This document shows positions 1 through 56,772 of a DNA stretch of 64,000 nucleotides, piece after piece; the stretch's first letter is position 1, and each line of letters starts with the position of its first letter. Source of the DNA: Patellaria atrata CBS 101060 (taxonomy: Eukaryota); NCBI GenBank assembly GCA_010093705.1, contig MU006099.1:806001-870000 (forward strand). Reading direction: 5' to 3'. The translations under genes and the position numbers were made by a program. The notes under the pieces were generated by a model. The model searched no databases, had not been told where the DNA came from, and saw nothing but the letters and a program-made list of their open reading frames with translations.

Positions 1-2207
1 TCCAGAGTCCGCGATCCCCTATCCCTTGCCAATTTCCGCGTCCTGCTGCCACTCATTTCTCCATACGGAGAACTTCTTTCAAGATGCTCCTTGGGGTAAC
101 ATACCTTCGGATCGTTTAGGTGTCCTAGTACCGAATAGTATCCGTCTTCGCTACGGTCTCTTAGGGGGTTCATCGAAACCTTCTAAGCTTGCCGCCCTTG
201 CTGCAGCTCGGAAGAAGAAAGAAGATGAGAAAAAGGCAGGCACTACCCCATCATCTTTTAATTCTGGTAACCTTGAAACTGGGAAAAGTATCTTGCTTCT
301 ACACAGGTTGGGAAACAAACAGTCCAGCCACAGTAGCCAGCCTTCAACACCTTTACCAGATGGCAGCATAACTGGAAAAGAGAATGTTGGAAAATACATA
401 ACACCTACCTTACCTAACCGACAGAAGGTAAAACCCACTCCAGCGATTGAGCGTCAAATACGAGACGTCAGCGATACCGTTGATCACTCAGAGGATACCC
501 CTGCGAGAAATATACCACGGTCAGATTTACGTGCCAATCCTTCAGCGTTTGCTCATAGCATGTTCGGGAAATCACTTTCTCAGGCAGTGGGTTCAAATGA
601 TCAGGAGGACAGCGCTTTTATGCTACCGTATCTTAGTGATCCGGACTTTGCTAAATTAAATGCATTTGCAGGTCCAAGTCCGGATGACGTTGTACTTAAC
701 GCACAGGCAAAAGGTTCGATTCGCGCTTAAGCAGCGATACGAACAGGACTAATCCTCAATAGGCGCAAAAGGAACCAAATCACAATCGAAACAATCTATC
801 GGAAAGGCCACAAAGAGTGCAACTGAAGGTTCTGATTCCTTAAGCGTTCAGGAGCCGCCAAAAGTCAAAAGCAAGAATTTAAATGTATTAGAGGAGTTCG
901 AGAAATCCAAGTTGAAGAGTTCGGCAAACTTCGTTGTCATCGGTATGGATATTTGTATTCGCAGTACTTGCACCATCTAACTGCCCGAATTAGGACATGT
1001 TGATCACGGAAAGAGTACGCTGATGGGAAGGCTTCTATATGATTTGAAGGTCGTCGACCAAAGATCTGTTGACAAGCTTCGAAAGGAAGCCGAAAATATT
1101 GGCAAGCCATCATTCGCGCTTGCTTGGGTAATGGACCAGACGGCCGAGGAACGCTCAAGAGGTGTTACCGTTGATGTTGCCACCAACACCTTTGAGACGG
1201 ATAGGGCACGATATACTATTCTAGATGCTCCGGGCCATCAAGACTTTATACCGAACATGATTGCTGGAGCTAGCCAAGCAGATTTTGCAGTGTTAGTTAT
1301 TGACTCAAGCACAAACAGTTTCGAATCTGGTCTGAGAGGTCAGACCAAGGAGCATGCCCTACTCGCACGCAGTATAGGCGTGCAACGAATCATCGTCGTC
1401 GTAAACAAAATGGATACTATATCATGGTTCGAATCCCGATTTCAAGAAATAGCTCAACAAATGTCTGCTTTCCTGTCGTCCGCCGGCTTCTCCCCTAAGA
1501 ATGTCTCATTCATCCCATGCGCCGGTCTAACCGGCGAGAACGTTGTTCTCCCCGCTCCATCTACCGCATCATGGTATACCGGCAACACTTTCCTCCAGGA
1601 GCTCGACACATGCGAGCACTCTACCTGCCCGCTGGAGCGACCCCTCCGCCTCACCGTCTCCGATATCTTCCGAGGTGGCATCACGAACCCGCTCTCCATC
1701 TCCGGTCGCATCGACGCAGGCTCTCTCCAGGTTGGCGATACAATCCTTTCTATGCCCGCCAATGAGAACGCAACGATCCGCGCCATTGAGATAGATAGTG
1801 AATCGGTTGACTGGGCTGTCGCCGGCCAGATTGCCACTCTCCATCTGGCGGACATCGACCCAGTGCATCTTAGAGTTGGGGATATTGTATGCACACCCTC
1901 TGCTCCTGTAACGAACATCAAGTCCTTCACGGCCAAGATTCTAGCTTTCGATCACGTGTTGCCGATGCATGTGGATGTATTTCGGGGACGGCTGAATGTG
2001 CCGGCTAGGGTTGCGAAGTTGCTTGCCGTGTTGGATAAAGCGACGGGCGAACCGGTCAAGAAGAAGCCGAGGGTTGTGCAACCGGGACTCGTTGCAAGGG
2101 TGGTAGTGGAGTTGGAGAGGGCTATGCCGTTGGAGGTCAGAGAGAGGGTTGTGCTCAGAACTGAGGGAGCAACGGTTGCAGCTGGACTCGTGGAGGGGTT
2201 GGTATAG
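1..2207 (+). CDS. HBS1: HBS1 translational GTPase (eEF1A/eRF3-like), 5' end outside window, with Ski7-like N-terminal exon
   Basis: Splicing introns 714-762 and 943-993 gives the P-loop VVIG/HVDHGKST, followed by ERSRGVT, DAPGHQDFIPNMIAGASQAD, NKMD and EF-Tu domains 2 and 3. The upstream exon carries SKLAALA, PSAFA and PSPDDVV. Confidence 0.93.
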
Positions 2208-2435: not shown

Positions 2436-4305
2436 CTACACATTACCTAAAGTAACCGTACTTGCCTCCAGTACGCCATTCTCATCAATCAAGCCGTCCA
2501 CAATTTCCTTGCCGGCCGGCTTATCCACTCCCAAAATCATCAAAGCTTCGTTCCTATTCTTCCCCTCTCCCTCTCTCTCTAGCGGCGCAACGGACATGAA
2601 ATTGATATTCACATCCGCTTTTCCAAGCCTCTGTCCGACAAACCCGATCCTACCGCATGAGTCGTAGTTCCGGCAGATGAGCAGATTCCCGCTCGGGACA
2701 AAGTTCGTCGCAAATCGGTCCAGCCGCGAGATGTACGGCACGTTGCCGGCGACGTAGCCCTGGATGACTTGCTCGGTCTCGGCTTTGGGGTCGTTGCGGG
2801 GCCCGGACCGGGCGTGAGAGGCCGAGCGCGAGGTGCGTGCACGTAGCGTCACGAAGCTCGTGTACCCCTTTTCTTCGGGTGACTCGCGGGAGCGCTGCTC
2901 GTTGACGTAGAGGCCGCGCTCTTTGGCGACGAGCTCGGCGTTGACGATGTTGATGTTTATCTCGCCCGGAGAGGAGATGGGGGAGAGGAGCCCCTTGATT
3001 AGAGCGGCGAATAGGGGCTTGGTGGTGTTGAGCGTTGCGAGGGAGCCTTCGTATGTGATGTCGAAGGTGTTTCTGGTTTGTTGACCCGTCGATGCGGCAC
3101 GGGTCGTGTAATGTTGAGTATAGAGGGATCCCATCTTCTCGACGAGGGTGACGAAGGGTTGAAGCGTGCGGTATTCTTCAGGCAGGATAATGGGCGCGTT
3201 GACCGCACTGCGCGGAAGGCTACCGGAGAGAATGAGGATGACTTGCTCGCAAACATCGATGGACACGTTTTCTTGGGCTTCGACGGTCGAAGCTCCGAGA
3301 TGAGGTGTCGCCACGACCTTTGGGTGCGCTATTAGGCGCGAAGCGGAGGAGTCTGGTTGTGGTGGCTCGGAGGTAAAGACATCGAGGCCAGCGCCGGCGA
3401 TTTTGTTGGCCACGAGAGCTTCGAGAAGAGCGACTTCGTCAATCATACCTCCCCTGCTAACGTTGAGTATGCGGGCCGTCGGCTTCATCATTGCAAGCTC
3501 AGAAGCCCCAATCATACCCTTGGTGGATGCAATAAGGGGCGTATGTATAGTGAAAAAGTCTGCGTCTGGGAGAAGCTCGTTCAAGCTTGATTTCAAGGTC
3601 ACATTTGTAGCTGCCGCAAGCTGTGTATTGGCATAAGGGTCGTAAGCAATGACATTCATCCCCAAGCCATTAGCAATTCTTGCAACGGTAAGACCAACTG
3701 TCACTTTTTGTGAGCTTTGGATCATTGGGGTACGATAATCACGAGCTGAGTACGGTACGGACCTTTCCCAAGACCAACGATTGCCAGGGTCTTTCCTTTT
3801 GCTTCGACGCCAACCAATCGACTACGCTCCCACTTCCCGTCCTTGATACTTGCGCAAGCGTCTCCGATGTTACGGGCTACGGCCATCATCACTGAAAGGA
3901 ATATCAGCACCTAGCGCTTTCAGTACTGTACACGAGGCAGAGATTCGTACAAGCAATAGTATGCTCGGCGGCAGCATTGATGTTGCCAACGGGCGAGTTG
4001 ACCACAATAATGCCGTTCTTTGTGGCGGCCTCTACATCTACATTGTCAACGCCAACGCCAGCTCTTGCTACAACCTTGAGCTTCTTCGCTGCTTGGAGGA
4101 GTGCTGCTGTCACTTTGGTCTCGGAGCGTACAATGAGAGCCTCGTATTCAGGGATGATCTCAAGAAGCTGCTCAGGGGATAGGCCTTTCCGCTCGTGTAC
4201 CTCGAATGATTTCTGAAGAAGGGCCAGGCCATCGGGTGACACCTTTTCGGGAATCAATATCTTGGGTTTGGACTGATCTGGTCCGCTGGATGTAGGAATG
4301 GGCAT
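2436..4305 (-). CDS. serA: D-3-phosphoglycerate dehydrogenase, type 1 (with ASB and ACT C-terminal domains)
   Basis: Motifs LIVRSETKV, RAGVGVDNVD, AAAEH, the spliced GLGK/VG Rossmann motif, LNVSRGG and TPHLGAST. The C-terminus is ASB-like (VNAELVAKERG) and ACT-like (G.IG.VG..LGK..VNI). Two introns at about 3950-3894 and 3762-3698. Confidence 0.92.
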
Positions 4306-5148: not shown

Positions 5149-6272
5149 TTACCACTTAGTCCTCGTCTTGAGCTTCTCGTTCTGCACGATTTCAATCCAA
5201 TATCCATCAGGATCTATTGTTAAAGTCAGTTCCGGCCATCATAACCATCTATACATATACTGCAGGAAACCTACCCAGAATGAATGCGATATCTTTCATT
5301 CGCCCATCCGTGAGCCTCTTCTTCCAGTTTACATTCTTCTCCTCCCACCTTGAGCAAGCAGCATCCAGGTCATCAACAGATACGCAAATATGACCAAACC
5401 CTTGAGGTTCTGCATTCCCGTCGTGGTATTTGAAATCCGGATCAACTTCCGTTCCGTAGTTATAGGTAAGCTCTAATAGTCCTTCCTGGTCTGCTACGGC
5501 ACTGACACCGCTTGGAGACGATCCTGATGGAGGCGGTCCATAGCCCAAGAAGTAAAGATCGAACTTGGCACCTTCGTTTTTGGAGGTACGCTTCAGGGTC
5601 ATGCCCATCACATCCCTATAGAACTCTAACGACTTCTTGATGTCCTTGACACGAATCATTGTATGGTTCTATAAACGGTCAGCTAGCAATTTGGGACTGG
5701 TGTGCACACTGAACTACCATTCGATACGTTGTGAGATCACTCTCTTTTATACTCTCTGTAGACTCGGCAGGTTTCTGAGGGATGATCTCTACCCAATATC
5801 CATCAGGATCGAGGGCAAATGCAATGCTTCTCATTCGGCCATCCGTCAGCCTTTTCTGGAATTTGTAACCCGCGTCTTCAAGCCTCTGGCAAGCCGCTTG
5901 GATGTTATCTACAGAGATAGCTACATGGCCGAAACCTTTGTACGGGTCACTGTTGCCGTTTGTGATCTTGTAGGTGGGGTCGTCTTCAGTGCCGTAGTTG
6001 TGTGTCAACTCAATTAAGCCCTCTCGGTCCGTCCAATGGTTAGCATGTGAGGCAGCTTTAGGGCTGTCATACCCAAGGAAGTAGAGGTCGAATTTCGCTT
6101 CAGGAGACTCTATTCTGTTTACCAGCTTCATGCCGAGGAATTCGTAGAACTTGACCGACTCTTTTGGGTCTTTCACCCTCAACCTACAAAATCCCAATAA
6201 GCGACATCCCAAGGTCTGGAGACATCTGCCTTACATGGAATGATTCAGCTTGTATCTACCCGGATCCGTCAT
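5149..6272 (-). CDS. GLO1: Glyoxalase I (lactoylglutathione lyase), two-domain fungal type
   Basis: Starts MTDPGRYKLNHSM/LRVKDPK. Two repeats of ELT(H/Y)NYGTE, GFGH and DPDGYW(V/I)EI. Three introns; ends KTRTKW-stop at 5149. Confidence 0.95.
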
Positions 6273-6823: not shown

Positions 6824-6873
6824 GGGGGGAGCCGTGGGGGAGGGGGGGGGGGAAGAGGGAGGGTAAGAGGGGT
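6824..6873 (+). other. G-tract cluster (potential G-quadruplex) in the GLO1/GH18 divergent promoter
   Basis: Runs of G6, G5, G11, G3, G3 and G5 within 50 nt. Confidence 0.55.
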
Positions 6874-7061
6874 ATTATCGTATGGGTCAAGTATTGTACT
6901 GTACCTTAATTGGGAGAATGAATTTATTCGGTTATATGAGATGGTACATCTTATCTTCCATTTTTCTGAAACAACAAATTCATAGAAATTCTTGGACGTG
7001 AAGCCGATGCGTGGAAAAATCTCGAGGCAAGGAAACTGTTTACTTACACTTTCCGAAGAAC

Positions 7062-8343
7062 ATGGCACCTACAGCATCGAACCCAAACCCACCTCTTCTT
7101 CCCGTTGATCAAGGGCCTCGTTTAATCCTATACCATCAGACACATCATGATAGGAATGGCAGCTCCATCTCGATTCTACCTCTTGTTCTTAATCCGACTG
7201 GAATAACGCATGTCATCATTGCTGCCATACACTTGAACGAAGGCCCTGGGAACATCACACTAAACGATGACGTCCCGGACGCGAGAAAATTCGATGCTTT
7301 GTGGGGAGAGGTTGCATGGTTGAAGGGTACGGGTGTCAAGGTGATGGGTATGCTGGGTGGAGCGGCGAAGGGAAGCTTTTGGAGGTTGAGCGGGAGTGAA
7401 GAAGAGGTTTGCACGCACTACTCGTACAGTTATCTGAAGCCATCTTTGTGTACTCTACTAACATACTGTATGTACCGACTTACAGTTTGAAGCATACTAC
7501 AGACCGCTGTACGCGCTTATTCACGCTCGCAACCTTGATGGTCTCGATCTCGATATTGAGGAGCCAGTCCCGCTGCACACATGCACCCGCCTTCTCACAC
7601 GATTACGCACCGATTTTGGGCCTTCCTTCATTCTAACTCTTGCTCCAGTTGCCACCGCTCTTCTTCGACTTCCAGCAAATTACGAGTTACCACCCGCATC
7701 AGATGAACTCCCGCCCGTGCTCGTTCCACCTGCCGACACATTCCCTATGTCTTTACCACAATTGAGCGGGTTTTCCTACTTCGCACTGGAAGCTTCAGAA
7801 GCGGGCAGGTTGGTCAGCTGGTACAACACACAATTCTACTGCGGCTGGGGTGAAGCGCGAACTACACAATGGTACGACGCTATCATCGCTACTGGCTGGA
7901 ACCCGAACCGCGTCGTGATGGGTTTGGTTACAAATCCTGGTAATGGAGCTGGATTCGTGGACACGCCGTTGATGTCTCAAGTCCTCCGATCTCTTCGCTC
8001 GAAATATCCTAACTTTGGTGGTATTATGGGCTGGGAACACTTTAATGCTCTGGATGAAGGGTTTGCGAACGAAATTGGAGCCGATGAAGACGATAAAGGC
8101 CCGTGGAGATGGGCAATGCGCCTTGGTCGGGTCCTTCGAACTGAGATCCCAAGTAATCCAGATATCACATTCATCGAGCAATTGGTGAGCGGATTACCTC
8201 AGCTACCGACGCCGCAGACAAGTTGGCCGCCGGAAGATATTCAGACCCTAATGGACTTGGGATTCGACCGCCCGCGCGTCATTGCGGCATTGAATGCTAC
8301 ATCGGGTGCAGTAGATATGGCTGCCAGTCTTTTGTTTGAGTGA
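7062..8343 (+). CDS. Cytosolic GH18 endo-beta-N-acetylglucosaminidase-like protein with C-terminal UBA domain
   Basis: Exons 7062-7406 and 7486-8343 join in frame. Motifs YHQTHH, THVIIAAIHLN, MGMLGGAAKGS, catalytic LDGLDLDIEE, WYNTQFYCGWG and FGGIMGWEHFN. C-terminal PEDIQTLMDLGFDRPRVIAALNATSGAVDMAASLLF matches the UBA pattern. No signal peptide is evident. Confidence 0.85.
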
Positions 8344-11281: not shown

Positions 11282-14200
11282 TCACCACATATCGTCGTCC
11301 TTTGCGTCGTTACCGCCGTCGTCATCAAATGAAGAGCGCTGGTAGAAGCCATCCTGATGCTTTGCCGCCGGTTGACCAAGATAATTCTGCCCGCTTGAAA
11401 CGCTGTATCCACCGCTGGACTTGCCGCGTCGAGACTGGGCCGACGAATGGGCATATTGTGACGACTGCGAGTCGGACGTATCGTCCTGGTTGGTATCATA
11501 CTCTCCGTGTCCTTCCTGATCAGTAGAGGATTGGACAGTAGAGTGGTGAACGCCATGGGCTGCTTTATCACCAGAACCTGCATCGTCGCGAGCTTGTTGC
11601 TATATTATGTCATTAGCGTACAGTTATAAATGCCATCTTTCCAATCAACTTACCTCCTGATACCTTTGATATTGTGAAAATTCTTCAGGCTGCTGCTGCT
11701 CTTTCTTGCGTTGCTGTGCAAGACGTTCTTGTTGTTTAGGTGTGGCGGATTGCCCAATTTGCACTTGGGGATGCATTTGCTGGACCTTAGCTAGGTACGA
11801 GTACATGAAATTACTCAGCAAGACCTGAGAATAAAGCTCTCTTCTAGGATTGGCAAGTTTGAGGTGTGCCATTCGGTAGATTGCTCGTTCCTCCATGATC
11901 GAAAACCTGGTCCAGTTGTAGTCGATGTCTGGTTTAAGTACACGGGGAGGAGGTTCAGGAGAGAGGCCGCGCTGCGAGCTGCTCTTTTTGCCGCCCGAAT
12001 CTCTATCACTCCTCTTCTTACCGCCAAAAAGGGAAGAGAATAGGCCGGAATCCTTCCCCTTACTTCCGTCACTACCAGTCGCCTTCCTGTTGCTTTCTTT
12101 TTTCCTTTCCTCTTCCAACCTAAAACTCTCGCGATTTATAACGACACTTTCTCGTCCTTTGGAGCCTCCATCAATTGACGACTGCAACACGTCTAGGCGT
12201 GTGTTATCGTGGACTTTTTCGGATGACCTGGAGAGCTTTAGCCTGCCTTTTCTTACAGGCTCTTTCTCTTCTTTTTCTTTCCGTTCCCGTTCTTTTTCTT
12301 TTTCTTTCTCCTTATCCTCGCTACCCAGGAGCCATCCCCAACTCGTCTTCCGACCTGCACTATCAGATGCATCCTTCTTATCTTTTGACCTTCTTTGGGC
12401 TTGCTTGTCTTCCGAAAGGGTTGGAATGAGCGTTAAAGAATCAGTACGAGTGCTATTTCCAGGGAGGGGAGAGGGATGGGTAACTATATCATCGAATGTC
12501 TGGCTGAGAGGGGCCTGATGCTGCAAAGGGGCCGTTAAGGGTTGTCTGTTCTGTGAACGCGGTTGTGCAGCGTCTCGTGTAGGTACTGGATGCTGTACCG
12601 CAGATTGATTTTGATTGTATGAGGACTTTGACGATGTACGTGCAGGGAACTGTTGGTTATAAGTAACAGGGGTTCTTTGGGTTTCAGGAGGAGGTGTTTC
12701 AATGATCTGTGGAATAGGAGGATTATAACCAGGTAAGGGTGCTGTTGTCCGACCGTTGGACGCGATACGAGAATGAAACGCCCTCGGCTGAGGCGATCGC
12801 CTCTCCCCTGATTCTGACGGAGCAGTAATAGAGTCGACAGGTGGTACGGTATACGATTGTTCCACAGTTATTGGAGGTGAGCGTTTTCGCCCTGGCCGAG
12901 AGAAATTCTCTGCCGACTCCCCCCTTGGTGGGATAGGCTCTGTATGTACTCTGGTTAGACCAAGGTGTGGTAGGTCCGGATGCGACGGAGCAATCGGTGA
13001 TGTCGCTGGTGACTCTTCTGTGTCTGTCTCGACCTGACGTCCGGCCATTCGTTTAGAAAAGGGTACTCGTTCTCCTTTGCGTAGACTTCCTCTTCTATAG
13101 TTGGTACGCGTAGATCTCTTCAAAGATTGACCGGCCGGAGCAAGTGGCAGAATGGGCATATCTTCAGTTACTGGAACTTCCATTCCATCCTCAGAAGACC
13201 TCCGTGTCTGATCGATGCTGAGACGCCGAACGATAGAAGAAGGGTCGCTAATGAGAGATTCGAACTCTAAGATACTCGGATCTTTATGGCCTGCTAATGA
13301 CCTTTTCTTCTCAAGTCTCTCAGCACCATCTTTGTACCCATTGGGCCCATCAATCTGTTTGGACAGCATCGACTTCTTCCTCCGCAGTCCACCGCCGGAT
13401 CCTTGTCTGTCAACCCCTTCAGGTGACAATGTATCCTCCCCTCCAGACCTGCGCTTAATTTTCTCCACTTTGTCCTCTATAAAAGTCTTGAACTCCTTCG
13501 GCGCAAGTTCAGGGTGTAGCCTTGCTGGTACCCAGAATAGCCTGGAGGTGTCATTCTCATCGTCGGAGTGGGAAGGCGCTAGTGTGGGAATTGCAAACCC
13601 AGAGCTAAAGGATGGTAAATCAGGATCTGACGCATTGACGTCCATGGACATTCTTCTTATAGCCTGTAGATTGCTCAATTCCTGTGCGACAGCGGCGGGG
13701 CTTGATTCATAGTCAATGTCATTAAGCGGGAACTGCTGGCTAGCCGTTTCTGAGTGAGTCCGGGACAAAGTCGGAGGGGAACGAGAGATGTCTTCGCGTG
13801 GGAAGGAAGGGCTCCGTGAGGAGGGAATCTTTGGGGAGCCATTGGGAGAGTTCGTGGTTCGGTCATTGCTGGTCGATTCGCGTAGCTGTGAACCAGGAGA
13901 CGGCCGATTGTTCAGACTTTGCAAACTAGCAACCTCGAATTTATCCCCCTGAGGCGATGCTACGAAGCTCAAAGGTCGTTGCATACGGTTACTGGTCGGT
14001 TCATAATCTGCATCTCCGTACATATCTCCAATCGCTTCCGTGACATGGTGGTTGTCATCACTGATTGAAATCTGGGGAACATGACCGCGCCTGGCCTGAT
14101 ATTTACGTTCTAACTCGCGCGCTCGCTGTGAACTCTGTAAAACCATGAAGTCGTTAGTAGTAGAAAGTAGAAAGTGGACTGGGGAAGGTGAGGGGGCGTT

Positions 14201-14323
14201 TGGTTGAAATATAACTCCGATTTTGAACCCCGTTTTATTTATGGCTAGTAGAGGCGAAGAATATGAACAGCTGATGTTCAAAGACCCCTAAATGGCTTAA
14301 TAGATTGTCCAACTTACTTGCAT
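11282..14323 (-). CDS. ZDS1: Zds1-family protein (PP2A-Cdc55 regulator)
   Basis: Conserved LFWVPARLHPELAPKEF, LRRKKSMLS and the Zds_C motif RFSIMEERAIYRMAHLKLANPRRELYSQVLLSNFMYSYL. First micro-exon ATGCAA at 14323-14318, intron to 14135, last exon ends DDDMW-stop. Confidence 0.9.
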
Positions 14324-15729: not shown

Positions 15730-17729
15730 TCACGCTGGTCCGCTCAGATTCTTTTTCCAAACGTAGGCAAGAGTGACTGCGGCACAGAGGCTAACGCCTA
15801 TCGCCAGATACATGGTCGTATAGTCAACGGGCTCCTCGTCAGACTTTGGAAACGCGGTTGAAGGGTGAGTAGCACACTCTGCTAGCTAAAACAATCATTA
15901 AGTAGCCATAGCACAGGTTCTGATGTGGAATCGATCACTTACGTGCACAAATAGCTCAGAGATACTGCTCCATGTAGCGCTTACGTGTAATGGAGCTGCC
16001 ATATTCAGAGCATTCGTATACTCATCAGGTTGTTGCTCGCACCGCTGAGTCGTCCTATCCTGATCTGCTTTTAGAGCAATGTATACTGCCGGGATTTGAT
16101 CTAGCTGCGGATACTTCTTTCGCAAGTCGACAATATGAGAGAAACTGTCTGGGTCACTTGAATCGTAAGTGTAACAGAGGAGATCGCATGCGTCAAGTTT
16201 CGCCTGGTTTTCCAAAATTGCTGATTCGAGCTCTCCTAGTTCCTCGAGGATAAGATAAACCTGTTTGCCGCCCTGTAGTTCAACGCTATTAACGGCTGAT
16301 CGCGGTTTTATGGTGGGCGAATATGTAGAGTTGAATGGACGGTTGAGTAGAGCAGAGAGCAGCATGCTCTTTCCGCTTCCTCTGGAGCCGATGACATAGC
16401 ATAAGATTACATTCCGTTCTACCCTTCCAGGCTTGTTACGTCTTTTCCGCGCTTTTGTGACCTTTAGTGCTGCTGTGGTTCCCCCTTTATCCAGGCTCTC
16501 GAAGCCGAGAAATGCAAGATATTCCAAGGTGGTCTTTGGTTCTTCAAAGGTAGTCATACTCCATTGAGCAAGCCACCCTTGGAGCGTGATATGGCCTGCT
16601 TCATTGCGCACAGTACAGGATGGAAAGGATGAATCAAGCCAAGAAGACGGAAGGCCGGGAGTAGGGGCAAATAACGCTGCCAGTTCCGAATCGTTTAATC
16701 CACCATCGTTATCTTTATCGAAAAGAAGGAACAAATCGACGAAAAATCGGTAACCGGCAGGGCTGAGTTCAGCGGATGAAAACTGGGGTACTTCGAACTT
16801 GGGATGCAAAAAACTGTCTTTAAGACTGAGACTATCAGTATATTGGAACTTTCTCAAAATGATCCACACCGTCTCGTGCCGGCCTTTTTCGGCAAAGATT
16901 TTGTTAAGATGGATGAAGCCATTCTCATCTATTCCCCTCTCCGATGCGGACTCTTGGGCCCATTTTTGGATGGACGTTTTGATGTTCGAGAGGTCATCAT
17001 CCGAAAGTGGTTTATCAAAGCACTTCTTCTGAAAGTCATGAATCTCTTTATCATTAAGATAGCCGTCCTGATCTTTGTCACATAAAAAAAAGACGCGCTG
17101 TAGGGCTGCAATTGCTGCAGGTTTTAAGGTAGCTTCCTTGGAATCATAAAGGGGCGCTATCGGATGGGTCACGGCCTTTTGACAGAGGAAGAATGCTTCA
17201 TTGATGTTGTGATGCTCTTTGGCACTTGTGCGAATACACGAATCAATCTCTTTGAATTCGTTCATGACTGGCAACATCTCGTCTGCCACCACTTGAGCGG
17301 TTGAACCATTATTCCGTAGATCTGACTTATTTGCGCATAGAACAACGGGTATGTTTACTCCAAGGGACCTGAAGTATGGCATCCAGAACAAGGCCACCCT
17401 CTCATAGCTATAATGATCGGAATATACCAGGAGAATGACATTAGCTTTACGAAGCTCTTTTCGCAAGTTGTTCCGTTCCAGGGGTAAGGCAGAGGTATCT
17501 ATGATAGTTGTTGTGACATTGTCTGGGGTACCAAGCGTTGGCGGGAGCGTTATAGGCGGAAGGACGGGTTGGATTTTATTGTTGATGAAGGTGTCCTTTA
17601 CCAATCCTGTGATGATCGAGGACTTTCCAACTTCGATATCACCACATACACAAATTCGAACTAAAGCCAATGCACGTCAGTCGATCTATCCAATAGCGAA
17701 GGGGAATTCAAAGGGATACCTGTAGCCAT
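15730..17729 (-). CDS. GEM1: Mitochondrial Rho GTPase Gem1/Miro
   Basis: Two GTPase domains (GDIEVGKSS and GSRGSGKS), two EF-hands (DKDQDGYLN and DKDNDGGLN) and a C-terminal tail anchor in the last exon ([20 protein letters not shown]). Confidence 0.95.
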
Positions 17730-34164: not shown

Positions 34165-34479
34165 GTTTTGATATTGTGTTTAGTTCAATTAGATGGCGAA
34201 GATTGGATCAGAAATGGAAGCTGGATGGATGGGGTCAAAGATGGGGTAAAACACGTCGCGTCCTCCACTGTCCCGTCCTCACATGAGCTGCTTTGTCAGC
34301 CGAATGCTTTAAAGTTACTATACTGCCGTACTGTAACATGGAATGGGAGCTACCTTACTTGACCTCATTCGTATTTACAGTACATCAGCCCGACAACTAC
34401 CTTACCTTACCGTACGGCTCAGTTCCTACGGTAACATACATCTACCCTAAACACAACAAAAAGAGACAAATCCATTAAC

Positions 34480-36051
34480 ATGACCCTAAACCCAGCTCAA
34501 GCTTCTTCCTTACGAGTCTTTGAGCAAAACGAAACAGCTAGTTTTCAGGTCCCTTCAAAGAAGATCAATGAAGGTGAAGATGTATTATTTTGGCTTAAAT
34601 CAAGGGCATACGCGGATATTATGACTTTTATATTGCAACTCAACGCTGCTATGTTCCCTAGCAAGATTTCTCGTACCGATTCCCATGATTCAGGAGTACA
34701 GATATGGGAGCTCGACACACCAGTTGTCAAGTTTTCGCCAACCGTAGAACGATTGCAAACTCTCATTTGCAAGCTTGACTCGATAATTGAAGAAGCTCCT
34801 CCAGATAAAGGTCCCCGTAGGTTTGGTAATATTAGTTTTAGAAGATGGTACGAAATTGTCAATAGCCGCCTACAAGCTCTTCTGGACGAATGTTTACCAA
34901 GTGAAGTATTATATTTCGGCAACCCGATCGATGGTGATACATCATCTAAGGATGAACTTTCAGCCTATCTTTACGATAGTTTCGGAAGTGCACAGAGACT
35001 AGACTACGGTACAGGTCACGAGTTGAGTTTCCTGGCATTTTTAGCTGGCATCTGGAAGCTACATGGCTTTGCTACTGGAGAACCCGGCGTCGAGGAACGT
35101 GGTATCGTGCTTGGTGTGATAGAACCGTACGTAATCCTACACTGAGAAGGACTACTCTACTCACCGAGAATAGGTATCTACGTCTAATTCGACGACTGAT
35201 ATTGACCTATAATCTTGAGCCCGCTGGATCACATGGCGTATGGGGTTTGGATGACCACTCGTTCATTCCTTATATCCTGGGTTCAGCACAGCTATCACCA
35301 GCAGTTGCGTCTCTTGCAGATATTCCCACAGAAGGATCATTACCGGGCGCACCAAACCCCGCGGACGTAGCCAAGTCCCCTATAGTGGAGAGGGAACGGA
35401 AGAAGAATCTCTATTTTGGGGCTGTTGGATTCATATATGACGTTAAGAAAGGCCCATTCTGGGAGCACAGTTCCGTTCTTTATGACATATCAGGGGTCAA
35501 AGCAGGTTGGGCAAAGATTAATAAGGTAAATATCTGGTTAGTTAAGATTTGGACACATTCACTAATGATGCTATCAGGGTATGCTCAAAATGTATAATGC
35601 AGAAGTATTATCGAAATTTCCAGTTGTACAACATTTTCCGTTTGGCGCTCTGTTTCGGTGGGAAAGAGATCCTAATGCGTTACCCGCTGAATCCTCTATT
35701 CATATGACGAGCGAACCCACAAGACACCCAGCTGTCAGCGTAGGCACAGGGAACCCTTCTAGGCCTTCAATGCACGAATCCTCTAGGGCTCCTTGGGCTT
35801 TGAATCCTAGGTCGTCGACAGCAACCCCAACATCACGGTTTCCAATTGTACCGTCAGCCCAAAGGACATCCATGGAGAAGACTACAAGAGCACCGTGGGC
35901 AGTCAACTCATCGGCGGCTCATTCTGTGCTCCCGGTACCTAGACCCGGCACACCTAGTGCTTTTAGCAGTGGCGGGTCTACAACAGTACCGTGGGCTCGA
36001 CAAGAAGAAATTGATTCAAGGACGAAGACTGGATCGCGAAGAATACCTTGA
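34480..36051 (+). CDS. RRD1: PP2A phosphatase activator (PTPA) Rrd1
   Basis: Motifs [55 protein letters not shown] and [18 protein letters not shown]. Two introns. Confidence 0.93.
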
Positions 36052-36644: not shown

Positions 36645-38108
36645 ATGGGACCACTCCGAAGCATCGCGCTCGTTGTTCTACTCATCTCCTTCCTAACCTT
36701 TGTAGCTTTCTTCGGCAGACTTCCGGGTTTGAGGTTCGTGAGCTGCTTCTGCTTGGCTTGTCATCCGATGGATAGCATCACGCTGATAGGATCAGGAACA
36801 CACCTATTGGATTTCTTCACCGCGCAATATGGATATATATTCCTAATACCCTTCGCCATGTAGACCTTCTGGTCACTGGTGGCCGTTTCTCGCGCTCCGC
36901 TTTACGCTTGTTCAATTATCTCCTCTACGATAAGCATCCTGTGGTTCTGGTACGCGGCCTCACCTTCTCCTGTCTTACTGCAGAGTTGATGTATACAGAT
37001 CTTCTTTCTCGGCCTCATATCCGCCAGCGCTGCCCTTATAGTTCCTCGAACGTGGTCCAAGATCTCCTCCATTCACCATGTCGTGATTCCAGTTATCCTT
37101 CCGTTACCCTACCTATTCACCTACCTGGCCACATCCGCGCGCTTCTCACCCTACATCACGCGCGATAACCATGCGCGACATATGTCATATTATCCCTACG
37201 ATCGTATTCTTTACCATCCAGGCCATATGTGTCGAACATGTCTTTTTCTGAAACCGGCACGAAGCAAGCACTGTAGTATGTGTAAGACATGCGTCGCACG
37301 TAACGACCATCATTGCATCTGGGTGAATAATTGCCTTGGCCGTAACAACTACAGGTGGTTTCTTCTGCTTCTTCTGTCTACAAGTATGCTGCTCGCGTAC
37401 GGAGCATACCTTGCGTACATTGTCCTCACCCCGCTAGTAGAAGAGCAGAAGCGAGTTTGGCCGGAGGCACATTATCGCTCTCCTATACTTCCCGCGGGGC
37501 TGTCATTTTACGCTGCTCGGATTCATGCCATACAAGACGCATTCTTCCACTTTACAGATACGTTGATCACGGCTGTCGCAGTTGGCGGAGTGAGAATTGC
37601 TGCAGTTGGGTTACTGGCTTTCATGACTGCGCCATTACCAGCTGCGTTGCTAGGTTACCATATCTACTTGATATGGGCCGGTATGACGACTAATGAGAGT
37701 GCAAAGTGGTCTGACTGGCGACAAGACATGTATGATGGGCGTGTCTTCCTTGGAAAACAGTTACCATGGACGGATATTACAACGATGGGAAGTCGGGCCT
37801 GGAAAACACGAGATTCAATGCTTGACCGTAACCCTGATAACGACAATGATGCGTACACGGAAGACAATGCCTTTGATGTAGGAAAAGTTGAAGGAATAGC
37901 CCCGACAGAACCGCCAACAGATTGGCCCGTCAGACCTTCTCAAATCCTTGTCCAGACACGGGATGGCAAACCACCCCACGATCCTTTGCCCGAATCTTTG
38001 GTAGGTGTAGTTGATCCAGCGAGCTGGAAAAGGTGTTGGAGGTTGACGGAAGTGGAAAATATTTATGATCTCGGTTTCTGGGATAATCTCGTTGAAGTAT
38101 TGCGATGA
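36645..38108 (+). CDS. SWF1: DHHC palmitoyltransferase Swf1
   Basis: N-terminal [12 protein letters not shown], then YPYD.ILY, CRTC...[37 protein letters not shown] and [11 protein letters not shown]. Confidence 0.92.
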
Positions 38109-40061: not shown

Positions 40062-42496
40062 CTAATCCACTTTCCTCCACATGTCGAGAAACTCCATGCG
40101 TCCCTCAATGCCTCCTGGACCTTTCCAGCGATGTTTCTTATTCAGGCGCTGAATTGCCCCTGCATCGCTACCCTCGAGATCTGCATCATCACGTTCCGTC
40201 CACACCCCCCTCATATTCTCGGGTAGGTACCCATACTCTTTCAGATTTCTCGCAGCCACAATTGCTAGATGCGGATTCGCAGAGGTGCAATGGAGAGCAG
40301 TAGTGATCTGAGTTTCAGTGAAGCCGGCACCGATGAGATGGTTTATGTAGTCATCTAGTTCCTCAGCTTGAATGATGGATTGAGACTGTGCGGGAGGACT
40401 TGATGTCTGGATTTGCGAGGAGACAGGGGGGTTAGGCTCCCCATAGAGTCCTTGTGACTCAGTTGGTGGCTGAGTTTGTGAAAGCTCGGGTTCGGGGACG
40501 TCAAGATCAAGAGGTTGGGTTTCGCGTAACAAGAGATCTTGCGTATCCCATAAGGTAATTCTCTGCCGATGAGGTATAGGCGTCTCTGAAAGCTCGCGGG
40601 TTGGAGAGGAGAGCCCAATGGGAGGAGGAACTTCGAGTTCGAGACCAAGATCTGATGGAAAAGGATCTCCAGAATACTGCTGGAAGTTGTGGGTCGGCGA
40701 ATCGGATGATTCGTGATAGCGGAGACCATTTGCCATATTCCGCTGTGGCAATCCTACTTGAGATCCAGTGGTATCTTCGTCTTCAGAGTCATACTCTCGT
40801 TCAAGTAGTTCGATCGCTTCTTTTTGTGATATGAACCCGTTGGCCACAGCAATTTGAAGTGACTGATTTATGTAGCATGTGTCACTTGATGAATCACCAT
40901 CACTATTATCCGCAATCTTTTGCAGACTTGATAGTAGATGTTGTTTTTGATTTTTGTCGAGAGTCCGGATAAGCCCGAGAAGATGGTCATTTGGAAGCGC
41001 TTGACTATTCTGCGAATTGCCCTCCCTGGAGATTTCAGGATTTGTACCATCATTTTGACGAGTCAAGTGCGCTTCTTCCTCCTTCGATTCTTCGCTCTGG
41101 CAACCGTTGTCTGACAGGTCTATAATACTGTTCACGAGGCTGGAAGCTTTGGGAGGTGTTAATCCAACTGAATCAAGATGATTCTCTATTTCTCCAACGC
41201 GCTGCCGTTTGATATTCCCTGGCTCTGAGTTTTTCTCCGGGCGTTTAGTTATGAAGAGATCATCGTGTGAACGCTTTTTGTTAGTTTTATTGTAGCTCAC
41301 TGAAGTGATTGGTTCACTGCGCAGTTTTCGATGAACGTTCCTCCCCGGCGATCGTGGCTCTTCCGGAAGAAAATCGGTTTGAACGCTTGCACCGGTTATT
41401 TTCGATAGATATGATGACGGTCTTTCAGAAATGGGCGAGGTCGAGATATTTTTGGAATGGCTAGCCACTTCCAACCCAGGATTCTCTTCATGTCGTTTGT
41501 CTCTAGATCGGCCATCTTCATCAACAGGGTGATCTATTGATGGGAGTACGCTGTGTTCGTAATGTACCAACCAATCTTTAGTTGTACATTTTGAACCATG
41601 TTTGAACCATGTAATCCATGCTTTATCATATCTTTTTTCGCAATCAGGGGCTTTTTTAAGCTTATTGTATACAGGTTTCACGATCTGATCCCAGAAAACG
41701 CTCCAGTCTTCGGCGGTATGCTCGGTCTGATTTTCCTCAGCTTGCGAATACGCTTCCCACATTTCCCCAATATTCTCCAAAGGAACCTTCTCAATCTGAT
41801 GGCCAGAGGTGAGGAGGCCATGAAAATCGCTGGCGGAAAAGGTCCTTAGATCAAGAATCCCGTCGGAGTATGGTGTAGGTGGCGCCTCGGCGGGATTTTG
41901 AGGTGAGGGAGGCTGGAACTGAAGCTTTTTTACATATCTATCTCTCCAAGATTGCCATGTATGACGAGGGTTCTAGGAACGGTATATGTCAGCGCTGTTA
42001 CAACCCGATTACTGTTAGCGAGAATAAGTACCTTTGCTTCAAGCTGTTTGTAAATCTCATTGCCCAAGGCCCTCCCTCCTCTAAGCTCGTAGTCTTTTAC
42101 CCACTTATATAATATTCGATCGTCTTCTGCAGTGTACGCTGCTCTAACTGACTTCGAAGGCCTAATAAATCCCACTTCGCGGACGGTGCCTTTGAGTGGC
42201 CCCGCAGCGTGAGCATTTGGATCTGCCAATTTGCCATCTCGTAAGGATTCTTCAATGAACCTGTAGGATATAGCACCGGCTGGGTTATCTTTCCGTATGT
42301 GATCAAAAATGCAGTACTCGGCTTGTTTTTCTAACAGCACAACGATACCTCCGTTAGACTTAACCTCTTCAACGAAACGCGAGCGTGAGGGGCAACGGGC
42401 AGATATGAAGAACTTGCGCCCTGCGAACAACCCTCCTTGAACTGAATGGTTGCTATTGATCCCATTGTACACGATTGGCGCTTGGCCCTCTTCCAT
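40062..42496 (-). CDS. RAP1: Telomeric protein Rap1 (BRCT, Myb, Rap1 C-terminal domain)
   Basis: BRCT (LFAGRKFFIS...VKSNGG), Myb (YTAEDDRIL...GNEIYKQL/NPRHTWQSWRDRYVK across one intron) and Rap1_C (ALHCTS...LPENMRGVWTERDDADL...RMEFL). Confidence 0.9.
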
Positions 42497-42579
42497 TTTC
42501 AAGGCTCACGCCTAGGTAGACTATCGATCTAGAAGGATGGGAGCTGTAGGAGGATCTGGACGGGTACACCTGGCCTGCG

Positions 42580-47716: not shown

Positions 47717-50700
47717 ATGGCGTCGACTCGACCTCCAACACGCGCCCCGTCCGTCGCCGAAGAAACACAACAAGCTTATGCCACCCCCAGACCGCAAAGA
47801 CGGCAGGCTAAAAAGCAAGCTCCTCAGAAGAGCATTGATGAATTTTGGGACAAGTTTACGACCAAGACTCCGGGAAAATGCTTCACCATTCTACCCGATA
47901 ATCTATATGCAAGAAGGGCAGCCGCAAATGCTTCCAAAGGAGTCATTCCAGGCCAAAATGCCGTCGCCTCATACGAGGAAGCTGCGGCTGCGTGCCGGAC
48001 CAAGGTTGAGAAGATAGTGAAGGAGTGTCGGCGAATCAATCAAAAATACCGAGATCCGCATTTTGATATCGAGGCCGACTTCAAACGGTGGATGCAAATG
48101 GGTGCGCCTCCCGACTGTCTTACTACATTAGACGAAACTAGGAACAGTCTGCGTCCGATGTCTGTTCATAGGGTTGAGGTATACGATCCGCCCGCACCGG
48201 GGTTGGTATCTCTAGACATCTTTAACTAATGCATACTCAGGATATCTTTGAACGCCCAAGTTTCTTCATCGAAGGTGCTACAGCAAGCGATGTGAGACAA
48301 GGCAATGACGGAGATTGCTGGTTCATGTCTGCTCTCTGTACGTTGAGTAACAAAGAGGGGTTAATACAAAAGGTTTGCGTGGCTAGAGATGAAGCCGTTG
48401 GCGTATACGGCTTTGTTTTTCATAGAGGTATTACTCCATTTGGCATTTGATAAACCTTTCACTTGGACCAAACTAATTGGTCATAGACGGAGAATGGATA
48501 TCGGAAGTCATAGATGACAAGCTGTACTTGATCAAAGAAGACTTCGATGACGCTACCCTAGGCCGTAATCAGTGGCTCGAATTGCAGAACCGCAAAAGCC
48601 CTGTTGATGAATATCGGACGGTAATGCAGACTGGTTCACGCGCGTTGTACTTCGCCCAATGCAGTGACCCAAACGAGACCTGGTTGCCACTACTTGAGAA
48701 AGCTTACGCAAAGGCACATGGGGACTACTCAGCCATTGACGGTGGCTTCGTCGGGTAACTAATTTCCGCCGCTGAAATGCAGAAAGTAAGCTGACATCTC
48801 TCAGTGAGGGAATAGAAGACTTGACTGGCGGTGTAACAACCGAAGTATTTGCCACAGATATTCTGGATAAAGACAAATTCTGGAATGAAGAGCTTATGAA
48901 AGTGAATCAGGAATTTCTCTTCGGTTGTGGACAAATGGGTGGCAAATATGGAGAGCGTCAGGGCATCCAGGAAAATCACGCCTATTCCATTATGGCAGCG
49001 AAAGAAATTGATGGCGAGAGATTGCTGAAATTGAGGTACTTGGGCCGGAAAAGTGTCAAATCTGACCACGCTAACTCTGTATAGAAATCCATGGGGCAAG
49101 ACCGAATGGAAGGGTCCCTGGAGCGACGGATCCGAGCAGTGGACGCCTGAATGGATGAGGAAACTAGAGCATACCTTTGGTGATGACGGTGTCTTTTGGA
49201 TATCTTACAAGGATCTCCTTCGGAATTATCAGCACTTTGATCGCACCCGATTGTTTGGTTCTGAATGGATCGTCACACAGCAATGGACTAGTCTAAATGT
49301 CCCATGGTCTGTGGATTACTTAGAATCCAAGTTTAAGATAACGTTGCTGAAACCAAGTCCGGTGGTCATCGTTCTGTCCCAACTAGACGAGAGATACTGG
49401 CGAGGACTGGAAGGAGAGTATGAGTTTCATTTGCAGTTTCGATTACATAAGGAGGGCGAAGATGACTATATTGTCCGTAGCAATAGGGCGTACTACATGC
49501 GTAGGTCTGTGAGCACAGAACTGGATCTTGACGCGGGTAACTACACAGTGCTCTTGAAGATTACTGCAAAGCGTTTCCAGAATGCCAAAATACCCGAGGA
49601 AATGGTACGAAATACTTGTAATAATCGGCGAGAGAAATTGCTAAGTATCGGGTTAAGCTATGATCTAGCGCACGCGAAGGGTCAGTTTAGAGAATTAGAA
49701 CGTCAAACGCGGGCGGAAGAAAAGAGACGCAAGAAAGAGAAGAAGAAGGCTCAGATAAGAAAAGCTTACGAAGCGCGGAAAAAGCAGCACAAGAAGGCCA
49801 AACTAAGGAAAGTGAAAGAAAATCGCAAGATCGACGAGAGAATACAACGTAGTGCCAATGCCAGTGGAACAGCAACTCCTGCCGGAAACCCTTTGAATGG
49901 GTTTCAAACCCCAGACACCCGTTCAGAATCCGCTCCTGTGGTGCTGAACCGGAAGCTTGAGGAGATGAAATTGCAGGACCAGAGCTTTACGAATGGCCTC
50001 GGAATACACGTCAATGGTGAAGAGAGTAACGCAGACGCAAACAAGACCGAAGAATTTCCTCGCACTCAGCAGTCACCAGGCTTCAGTCCCAATCGCTTTG
50101 ACAGTTTTCCAGACTCTCAGAGACCGAGCACTCCAACACAACGGCCCACATCCCCAAGGCCAGTTGGTGGTATCCGTCGTTCGACTTCTCCGGCACCTCT
50201 AAGACCGCAGCGCCGTGCGACCTTGTCCCCGCTTCCGGGCGTACGGCCAGGAATAGAGATCCATCATACTGAGAACACCGACCGAGCATCGATAATCTCG
50301 AACAAACCAAGTTTGAGCGACATTAGTTCTGATGATCTGTCCTGGGATTCTGAAATCGACTTACCATCCTCTGACTCGGAGTCATCAGATGAAGGTGGTC
50401 ATCCGTGCAGCCTACCTCCGCTCTACGGTGGATTCAGCGGTGGGCGGGATCCTAGCGAGAGGGGAAAGGATAAAGATGAGGAAGAGGATGAATTTGAAAG
50501 AGACCCGTGGAATGCGGTATGTGTCGTGGGGTTAAGAGTTTACGGCAAAAACACTGAGGTCGGCGTTGAAGTTGTGAGACCGGGAGATAAGAAGCTTAGT
50601 CGGAAGCTAGACGTCGATGACTCCGCAGCGGATGCAACAAAGGCGCTAGGAGGTGGAGAGATATTCAACGGGAAAGGCGACGCACCTAGGGAGCTGGAGA

Positions 50701-50717
50701 GGTCGAAGCAAGGATAG
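47717..50717 (+). CDS. Calpain-like cysteine protease (peptidase C2)
   Basis: Catalytic motifs QGNDGDCWFMSAL (Cys), HAYS (His) and R/NPWG (Asn), plus LLEKAYAK and domain III (VLSQLD.RY). Lys-rich coiled coil and WNAVCVVGLRVY tail. Four introns. Confidence 0.92.
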
Positions 50718-52863: not shown

Positions 52864-54000
52864 GCTAAGCGAAGCTGACTTGGTGGTCGTCCTTGAGAAG
52901 GTGGGTATTATGGAGGGAACGAACAACGTGTCTCTGCTCCTATACACGCTTTTTCGTAGTTCGTTGTCCGTAGTTTAAAAGCTGTCTTGGGAGGTGTAGG
53001 TTCTATCTATGTAAAGAACAGTATTGCTTCGCTTACCTAATGACGAGAGGAACGTAAGATTACTGGGAGCGGGGAGCGGGAAAGCTCTTGGCTGAGGTTA
53101 GGGCCAAGGAGAATCTACATTCCACCATAGCATCACGTGAGGCATTGTGCAGTAGAATAAATATACAGCCATCAGTTTAACTTTACCGTTTAAACCTGCC
53201 AAACCGAGTCCATATATAATTTCCTTCTTTATTTATAACCTCAACCGCCATCTACTCCAGTAGCGAGGGTTGATAGTGGTATCTGTTGACTTGCTTCCAT
53301 CGAAATCACGGGATTTTTGTTTTCTTCCACCTTGCCGGTAACTGACCGCACCTTCCCGCAAACAGTTTAGATTATTTCCCACTCCCCTCTCGCTTCATTT
53401 CTTCCTTCTATCGCCTCCAGCTGTCGCAACTCGCAACAAGTTGATGAGCCAAAGCCAACAACTCCAATTCCCTTTTTCTTCATCTCCCATTTCTTCCCAT
53501 CTACGGTATTCACGCTCGGCAGATCTGATACACTTCGCGTGCATTTTTGCGCTCGGCTCAGAATATTTACTCAAAATTACTCCGAACATCATCTCATCTC
53601 ATTGCAACCTGGAAGAGGTTCTGCCGGCTGAGCTGAGGTGTCATCCCGGCCCGCAACCACAGTATCGTGATTCAATTTTGGAAGTGAACGTTCGGTCACA
53701 CGCAAAAGGGGCACGCACGCACAGATCTTGCATCATTGACGTTTCCGTCGCCATCTTCAGTTGTTTAGGTTTCTGCAAGTAGGGCATTAGGCTGGTGGAA
53801 ACGACCTCTGCGTTCTTGCTAGCTATTCTTCCGTGCACGCGCATCCACGCGTGCATCTGTGTCGCATCTCCCTTCTATCCATAGTTGCACCAAAACTGTG
53901 AAGACTAGAGATATTGCCATTCCTGAAACCCATAATATCACTGCGACCTGGTTGTGACCGTTTATCTGTGAGAACGAGCACCTAGTACTCTAGACGGACC

Positions 54001-56390: not shown

Positions 56391-56444
<54 letters not shown>

Positions 56445-56772
56445 TCGACTCTCTCCCACACCTCCTTCGCATACACAGTCTCATAATAAACCGTCATCGC
56501 AGCATCCTACCAATTCTCGTCCACAGCCCTCCCAAATCTCATCCCCTTATTCACCTCCACCCCAGGCGAACAGCCCGTGGTTGCAGATACTTGGTCCTCT
56601 GTTCCACTCGCCGACCGTCGCAACCATCTATAAGACCAACCCCAACCTTGATACAAAGAGCATTGAATCTCTGAAAGATATTCTGTCTCAGGATCCGAAA
56701 GCGGGAACAGACATGACAGTATTTGCGAGACTTGTGGAGAAAGGAGGAAGCTCCACGGCCGGGGGTGATTAA
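54001..56772 (+). CDS. BYE1: Transcription factor Bye1 (PHD, TFIIS central domain, SPOC)
   Basis: MA/DEPRRSGRATKGQH (intron 54008-54111), PHD finger RCPCG...QCEDC.AWQHNDC...CEQC, TFIIS-M (YRDQFRS...MASEE), RKTHKGEEIV and SPOC (WQGKI...GRI...VKDIYIVP). Confidence 0.9.
56392..56442 (+). repeat. (CAA)17 poly-Gln tract in BYE1
   Basis: Seventeen uninterrupted CAA codons. Confidence 0.95.

Follow-up and report, generated by a model that had tools for sequence, protein, structure and literature searches.

How does a cytosolic endo-β-N-acetylglucosaminidase (ENGase) find its substrates in endoplasmic-reticulum-associated degradation (ERAD)? A gene of the fungus Patellaria atrata CBS 101060 raises this question by joining, in one polypeptide, a glycoside hydrolase family 18 (GH18) barrel and a C-terminal ubiquitin-associated (UBA) domain. 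The gene lies at 7062–8343 of the stretch analysed here, a 64,000-nucleotide window of contig MU006099.1 (positions 806,001 to 870,000 of the forward strand, assembly GCA_010093705.1), to which all coordinates below refer. Our results show a class-wide variant of a known enzyme family, and with it a lead on possible ENGase–ubiquitin coupling in fungi without active peptide:N-glycanase (PNGase).

Work on Neurospora crassa frames the question. The original prediction for this locus stated that cytosolic GH18 ENGases are implicated in ERAD and that Neurospora PNG1 is inactive, and both statements agree with a 2026 preprint from the Tzelepis group (bioRxiv 10.64898/2026.03.25.714127). There, RNase B is deglycosylated by N. 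crassa gh18-10, which also stands in for Png1 when tested in the yeast RTL ERAD assay. In PNG1 of the same species the catalytic triad is lost, and the gene is no longer genetically coupled to rad23. According to the same preprint, loss of PNG1 activity appears common in filamentous ascomycetes, where a GH18 ENGase has probably assumed the deglycosylation of ERAD substrates.

A GH18 barrel and a UBA in one protein

Two exons encode the GH18–UBA product. An open reading frame (ORF) scan revealed frames at 7062–7490 and 7462/7747–8343. Removing the intron between the two exons, which contains a perfect TACTAAC branch site at 7456–7462, restores frame and homology, joining SEEE to FEAYYRPL. Upstream of exon 1, an in-frame stop ends at 7001. 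The joined exons give 400 amino acids (aa), identical at every letter to the NCBI entry 'glycoside hydrolase family 18 protein [Patellaria atrata CBS 101060]'. Two sequencing runs that cover the stretch, both from one study, are probably DNA, contain no splice joints and are uninformative on expression. The fusion is independent of the splice, because exon 2 alone encodes both catalytic motif and UBA, along with the rest of the barrel and the linker. The GH18–UBA architecture of the 400-aa product is real, and we hold this with high confidence.

Sequence comparison and structure modelling support placing the catalytic domain with the Endo T/Eng18 (B-V/B5) ENGases, not with chitinases. Pfam GH18 (PF00704) reaches 41.9 bits for the full protein, above its cut-off of 29.6, which neither exon passes alone. 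The DxxDxDxE motif required of GH18 enzymes is found at the end of strand 4, with D136, D138 and E140 unchanged in all 48 sequences of an alignment. Searching the PDB by phmmer, we found the closest structures to be Aspergillus fumigatus 'ChiC' (2y8v, 4.3e-45) and the Trichoderma reesei ENGase Endo T (4ac1, 4.4e-38). The catalytic stretch aligns with that of Endo T, whose catalytic pair is D129 and E131 (PMC3408457). An AlphaFold2 model of the full protein, built on the 48-sequence alignment, has a mean predicted local distance difference test (pLDDT) of 87.1 and a predicted template modelling score of 0.82, with strands and helices alternating as in a (β/α)8 barrel. Foldseek matched it to 2y8v (2.5e-32) and 4ac1 (3.0e-29), with template modelling (TM) scores by target of 0.90–0.93; the best ordinary chitinase reached 5.4e-11. 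Over the barrel, the protein is 48% identical (154/320) to a 337-aa Trichoderma gamsii protein that fits the published description of Eng18B (337 aa, DGLDLDVE at 127–134; PMC3346758).

The N-terminus places the protein with the predicted cytosolic branch of the family. It begins MAPTASNPNPPLLPVDQGPRLILY..., has no hydrophobic signal-like stretch, and in the AlphaFold2 model barrel strand 1 already starts at residue 20. A crude signal-peptide heuristic was negative for the Patellaria protein and positive in 3 of 84 homologues with the canonical form of the tail. By this heuristic and direct reading of the N-terminus, no signal peptide, transmembrane segment or glycosylphosphatidylinositol signal was found. 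The original prediction had proposed a signal-peptide-less GH18 enzyme with an intact DGLDLDIEE motif; the reading of the N-terminus and of exon 2 bears this out, and the phmmer and Foldseek matches to 2y8v and 4ac1 likewise uphold its Endo T/Eng18-like assignment.

The barrel carries a proline-rich insertion between strand 5 and the LSGF segment. It is predicted to be disordered (pLDDT 49–63 in the AlphaFold2 model), sits on the catalytic face of the barrel, and has no counterpart in 2y8v, Endo T or the Trichoderma orthologue. Inserts occur at the matching site in Mytilinidion, Pleosporales, Botryosphaeriales and Trichodelitschia, and not in Capnodiales, Dothideales or any Sordariomycete orthologue. 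We ruled out a missed intron: the insertion is in frame, contains no stop and has counterparts at the matching site in several orders. The Pleosporales insert carries a motif conserved at the protein level. An acidic loop at about residues 301–320 is also longer than in 2y8v, Endo T and the Trichoderma orthologue.

The C-terminal tail is a predicted UBA of the Ddi1 type. Pfam UBA (PF00627), with a cut-off of 22.4 bits, reaches 36.1 bits on exon 2 (E 5.5e-9) and 34.3 bits when the whole protein is scanned. The strings DGLDLDIEE and LMDLGF..ALNATSGAVDMAASLLFE were both found, both in exon 2. Among solved UBAs, phmmer placed yeast Ddi1 nearest (2mr9/2mro, E 8.7e-6), then USP5 (0.018) and Mud1 (0.71), and in the alignment LMDLGF and AASLLF are identical between the tail and the Ddi1 UBA. 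The terminal UBA of the original prediction, likened there to those of Ddi1/Rad23-type shuttle factors, is thereby supported, with Ddi1-type UBAs the closest. Its Pro-rich linker fared less evenly: a linker is present and predicted to be disordered (pLDDT 55–57), its length and sequence varying among homologues, but its proline richness is only moderate. In the AlphaFold2 model the UBA helices span 364–372, 377–386 and 391–399 at pLDDT 81–92, with L373-G374-F375 forming a loop. Neighbours of residues 345–400 in the ESM Atlas were Ddi1-family UBAs and two GH18+UBA clusters named 'putative chitinase' (145 and 65 members, mostly Ascomycota), at TM 0.68–0.73 by query, values that carry little weight on stretches this short.

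The residues expected to touch ubiquitin are kept. In UBA–ubiquitin complexes the contact surface is made up of the aromatic residue in the loop and the terminal part of helix 3. Judged by alignment, the positions concerned, G374, F375, L398 and F399, are retained in the cytosolic family. A yeast Ddi1 construct with the UBA and without the ubiquitin-like domain (UBL) binds ubiquitin with a Kd of 43 µM (PMC5028754).

Distribution and degenerate forms of the tail

Across Dothideomycetes, GH18–UBA is the usual form in which the enzyme occurs. With exon 2 as query, a word-indexed search of 3527 candidates gave 861 proteins at E ≤ 0.001. For a hidden Markov model (HMM) of the tail, we used the corresponding columns of 35 of the 48 aligned sequences. 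This model matched every one of the closest homologues, the best 120 of the 861, and 98 of these carry precomputed PF00627. Their named members are Dothideomycetes without exception, covering Pleosporales, Mytilinidiales, Botryosphaeriales, Dothideales and Mycosphaerellales/Capnodiales, and also Coniosporium. Of 138 HMM matches, 137 end no more than 12 residues before the C-terminus. An exhaustive search of 50%-identity representatives yielded 739 proteins at E ≤ 0.001. Among the best 150 of these, Pfam UBA is found at E ≤ 0.001 in 14 (13 above cut-off), and the tail HMM matches 18 strongly and 3 weakly. The named representatives with a canonical tail, from Polychaeton, Aulographum, Venturia and Trichodelitschia, are all Dothideomycetes.

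The fusion is not an architecture discovery, because domain databases already show it: PF00627+PF00704 is precomputed, and UniRef names a Venturia member 'UBA domain-containing protein'. The architecture search thus upheld the fusion of the original prediction but found it to be class-wide in Dothideomycetes (120/120 closest homologues), not special to one gene. The same prediction knew of no functional description, and there it stood, although the architecture itself had been machine-annotated. In full-text literature, mostly without subscription journals, we found no description of a UBA on GH18 ENGases or chitinases, and an earlier mention is possible. The words 'UBA' and 'ubiquitin' are absent from the accessible texts of the Neurospora preprint and the Eng18B paper (PMC3346758).

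Public names and domain partners in the family are mixed. Members named 'cyclin-dependent kinase', 'alkaline phosphatase', 'aminotransferase class 3' or 'chitinase' look like propagated mis-annotations. ENGase-type GH18 domains are also fused to ankyrin repeats, GH20 hexosaminidase, PhoD phosphatase, peptidase A4 and lysine methyltransferase, and some of these may be merged gene models. The pairing with GH20 is notable because deletion of gh18-10 induces GH20 in the Neurospora preprint.

A degenerate homologue of the tail occurs in GH18 paralogues with signal peptides. We found it in Cercospora (five proteins), many other Mycosphaerellales, Atractiella (Basidiomycota) and an Oidiodendron-containing cluster (Leotiomycetes). 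The tail is also present in a protein of Drechslerella (Orbiliomycetes) whose N-terminus shows no clear signal peptide. In a Cercospora-seeded set, 49 of 116 proteins carry a tail, 47 of them degenerate and 2 canonical. Of 32 full-length proteins with a degenerate tail, 24 are positive by the signal-peptide heuristic, compared with the 3 of 84 canonical ones; the heuristic is conservative, since it missed the representative of the Endo T cluster. Both tail forms occur together in Pseudocercospora musae, Zasmidium cellare and Polychaeton citri.

Residue conservation separates the two tail groups. Common to both are the W-P lead-in, L370, G374, A383-L384-N385, T/S387, G389 and A394, whereas F375, A395 and F399 are kept in the cytosolic group only. 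Across 108 distinct canonical (cytosolic) tails, conservation reaches 100% at G374 and A395 and 99% at F375, L398 and F399. In the signal-peptide group (53 distinct tails), A (58%) or V (30%) takes the place of F375, and 96% of the tails lack F399. This pattern, read from alignment, is consistent with ubiquitin binding being under selection only in proteins that can encounter ubiquitin.

The degenerate tails have a signature of their own. They keep a PWP lead-in and A-L-N-x-S/T-x-G, with the loop Phe and the final Phe lost. Their conserved N-x-S/T is an N-glycosylation sequon, a curious feature on a secreted glycan-cleaving enzyme. We also considered whether the C-terminal peptide cleaved from Endo T is the same UBA-like module, and rejected this: the Endo T cluster representative, which matches 4ac1 at 4e-116, has a tail without an HMM match.

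Sordariomycete enzymes end differently. We searched from a Purpureocillium orthologue and took the top 120 matches, whose named members are nearly all Sordariomycetes and which are annotated as GH18 only. By the tail HMM, none of these 120 Sordariomycete-type orthologues has a UBA tail. At the place of the Dothideomycete UBA, near the C-terminus, they show a motif of the form ..VP..F[DE]Y[YFH][ST]D... A relaxed pattern, F[DEQT]Y.[ST][DE], occurs in 117 of the 120, with a median of 5 residues after it; a strict one, [FYW][DEN][YFW][YFWD][STDE][DE], occurs in 82 of the 120 versus 0 of the 120 in the UBA set. Each class therefore keeps a conserved, but different, C-terminal module. The Sordariomycete motif may be an FFAT-like or other docking peptide.

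The phylogeny is compatible with a single origin of the tail followed by decay or loss. We computed a quick IQ-TREE tree of 80 rows, comprising 23 named picks and 57 representatives of about 270–500 aa, leaving out the fragments and long multidomain proteins among the 150 representatives. All 14 canonical UBA rows fall in one 30-row group (SH-aLRT 84), together with rows whose tail is degenerate and some that have none. Separate from this group is the Sordariomycete Eng18B clade (SH-aLRT 99), in a tree in which 29 of 77 inner branches are unresolved.

A proposed coupling of deglycosylation to ubiquitin

The fusion suggests a direct way to bring a glycosidase to its substrates. The GH18 barrel would cut the chitobiose core of high-mannose N-glycans on ERAD glycoproteins returned to the cytosol, a role published for Neurospora gh18-10 and Trichoderma Eng18B. 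Through its UBA the enzyme would stay attached to the polyubiquitin that these substrates carry, and deglycosylation would be coupled in cis to ubiquitin-marked proteins bound for the proteasome. The fusion would then be the covalent counterpart of the non-covalent pair formed in yeast by Png1, the enzyme, and Rad23, the UBA carrier. For the Patellaria protein itself, we infer ubiquitin binding, ENGase activity and replacement of Png1–Rad23. The likeliest function is that of a cytosolic ENGase acting on retro-translocated glycoproteins while tethered to their polyubiquitin by its own UBA; whether this whole mechanism holds seems to us an evenly balanced matter.

Several observations weigh against it. 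A homologous, degenerate tail persists in signal-peptide paralogues, so the module has, or had, some ubiquitin-independent role. Sordariomycete cytosolic ENGases function in ERAD assays without a UBA, which none of 120 carries, so the UBA is not required for the pathway. The tree, with its weak backbone, does not make the UBA clade sister to that of Sordariomycete Eng18B, so the characterised enzymes are only candidate strict orthologues. Modelled by itself from a single sequence, the 52-aa tail reached a pLDDT of 71.5 with helices 2 and 3 merged, and this model gave no Foldseek match in the PDB at E ≤ 0.001 (best 7.5). We treat the poor lone-tail model as a model failure, not as evidence against a UBA fold.

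Other explanations differ in how the tail is used, or in what the barrel cuts. Instead of recruiting substrates, the UBA may bind the UBL of a shuttle factor or proteasome receptor (Rad23, Dsk2 or Ddi1), or may stabilise the enzyme in cis, protecting it from degradation as it acts near the proteasome. C-terminal UBAs of Rad23 and Ddi1 shield their carriers from the proteasome, and UBAs bind UBLs; the tail is likewise C-terminal, stopping at most 12 residues before the end in all but one HMM match, and lies nearest to Ddi1-type shuttle UBAs. The strictest positions, G374, F375, L398 and F399, are those that contact ubiquitin itself, though they cannot separate ubiquitin from UBL binding; we consider this explanation, by UBL binding or stabilisation, unlikely. 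A rather less probable account makes the three-helix tail an old accessory module that works independently of ubiquitin, as a folding aid, regulatory lid or pro-domain, with its UBA likeness inherited. Homologous tails in signal-peptide proteins of several fungal groups favour this account, as do the match of the Cercospora tail to the Ddi1 UBA (E 0.058) and the 43–46-aa C-terminal peptide that Endo T sheds on maturation (PMC3408457). The tail of the Endo T cluster representative is not UBA-like, however, and the loss of F375 and F399 in the signal-peptide group against their 99% retention in the cytosolic group is what would be expected if only the cytosolic form used the ubiquitin surface.

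As for the barrel, a cytosolic chitinase or chito-oligosaccharide hydrolase might be suspected, since the best structural match, 2y8v, was deposited as 'chitinase ChiC' and many family names say chitinase. This is very improbable: the characterised members of the subgroup named in the literature consulted, Endo T, Endo FV and gh18-10, are ENGases, Endo T has been shown to play no part in chitin degradation, and a Foldseek gap of about 20 orders of magnitude in E-value separates the closest matches from true chitinases. That the fusion is a gene-model artefact joining two genes has a practically negligible chance, given that motif and UBA share one frame at 7486–8343 and that all 120 closest homologues, drawn from many separate assemblies, have them in the same order.

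The polyubiquitin tether may be one case of a wider pattern, which we propose tentatively. The C-terminal tails of fungal cytosolic GH18 ENGases could be interchangeable, class-specific address labels into the ERAD/proteasome route, acquired after loss of PNG1 activity. Dothideomycetes would read polyubiquitin directly through a Ddi1-like UBA, the Sordariomycete F[DE]YYSD peptide would dock on another ERAD or ER-surface factor, and signal-peptide paralogues with a decayed UBA would descend from cytosolic enzymes re-routed to secretion. That all of this holds together is somewhat doubtful. If it did, the fusion would be a 'Rosetta stone' for all filamentous ascomycetes, linking their ENGase with the ubiquitin system.

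A class-wide UBA on the enzyme itself would offer a concrete, cheaply testable mechanism for how ENGase finds ERAD substrates. ENGase acting without PNGase leaves N-linked N-acetylglucosamine (N-GlcNAc) stubs, which the mammalian NGLY1 literature describes as harmful. Tight coupling to ubiquitinated, proteasome-bound substrates could spare fungi this harm. The Sordariomycete motif and the decayed secreted tails also set up a natural experiment in the evolution of targeting modules.

Surroundings of the gene and relation to known systems

The gene sits among ordinary housekeeping genes (Table 1). By Pfam, none of the neighbouring ORFs in the window is linked to ERAD or ubiquitin. A purine-rich run, mostly G, lies at 6824–6850, about 210–240 nt 5′ of the start codon. 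Within the gene, at 7893–7983, one sequencing run has a contig break with low-depth alternative contigs of 31–60 nt that differ by one letter, probably sequencing noise or a minor variant.

Table 1. Features of the GH18–UBA gene and neighbouring genes in the window
Feature	Position	Strand	Basis
Two-exon gene, GH18–UBA product	7062–8343	+	ORF scan and sequence
Exon 1, aa 1–115 (115 aa): start codon, first third of GH18 barrel	7062–7406	+	ORF translation
Intron, 79 nt, GT 7407–7408, AG 7484–7485	7407–7485	+	Sequence signals
Exon 2, aa 116–400 (285 aa, 7486–8340), and stop TGA	7486–8343	+	Single uninterrupted frame
GH18 catalytic motif D133-G-L-D136-L-D138-I-E140 (DxxDxDxE)	7537–7560	+	Sequence read
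Proline-rich in-frame insertion, ~27 aa (about aa 180–205), strand 5 to LSGF segment	7678–7755	+	Alignment and model
Flexible linker, about aa 337–360 (~25 residues)	8149–8220	+	AlphaFold2 model
Predicted UBA with conserved W-P lead-in, aa 361–400	8221–8340	+	Pfam PF00627, model, conservation
EF-Tu-type GTPase	981–2207	+	Pfam
D-3-phosphoglycerate dehydrogenase	2436–3821	-	Pfam
Glyoxalase I	5679–6230	-	Pfam
Zds_C protein	11645–14287	-	Pfam
Miro/Gem1-type GTPase	15898–17676	-	Pfam
PTPA	34435–35597	+	Pfam
DHHC palmitoyltransferase	36990–38108	+	Pfam
Rap1	40062–42505	-	Pfam
Calpain-family protease	49035–50717	+	Pfam
PHD-TFIIS_M-SPOC protein	53986–56772	+	Pfam
Tyrosinase	60669–61793	-	Pfam

The Patellaria protein shares features with several known systems. 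Its fold and catalytic residues are shared with Endo T/Eng18A of T. reesei (4ac1) and A. fumigatus 'ChiC' (2y8v). Endo T differs in being a secreted enzyme with both termini processed, and, judged by the cluster representative, its cut C-terminal peptide is not UBA-like. Further counterparts are Eng18B of Trichoderma atroviride and gh18-10 of N. crassa, likewise B-V/B5 GH18 enzymes with the same motif and no signal peptide, and with a published ERAD-linked deglycosylase role. These enzymes lack a UBA, whereas the Patellaria protein has one, together with the proline-rich loop insertion of about 27 aa; in Eng18B, a protein of 337 aa, SMART finds only GH18 at 12–269 (PMC3346758).

On the side of the tail, the Ddi1 UBA (2mr9/2mro) and Mud1 are similar, with Ddi1 both the best solved sequence match and an Atlas neighbour. 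The carriers differ: Ddi1 is a UBL–aspartyl-protease shuttle, the Patellaria carrier a glycosidase. The W-P lead-in and the A-L-N-x-T signature are family-specific features of GH18 tails. A further likeness is to yeast Png1–Rad23, in which, as the Neurospora preprint summarises, a cytosolic deglycosylating enzyme is tied to UBAs that read polyubiquitinated ERAD substrates. In yeast, the two partners associate non-covalently, and the one that deglycosylates is an amidase of transglutaminase fold; the Patellaria protein carries a glycosidase and a UBA in one polypeptide, with no UBL.

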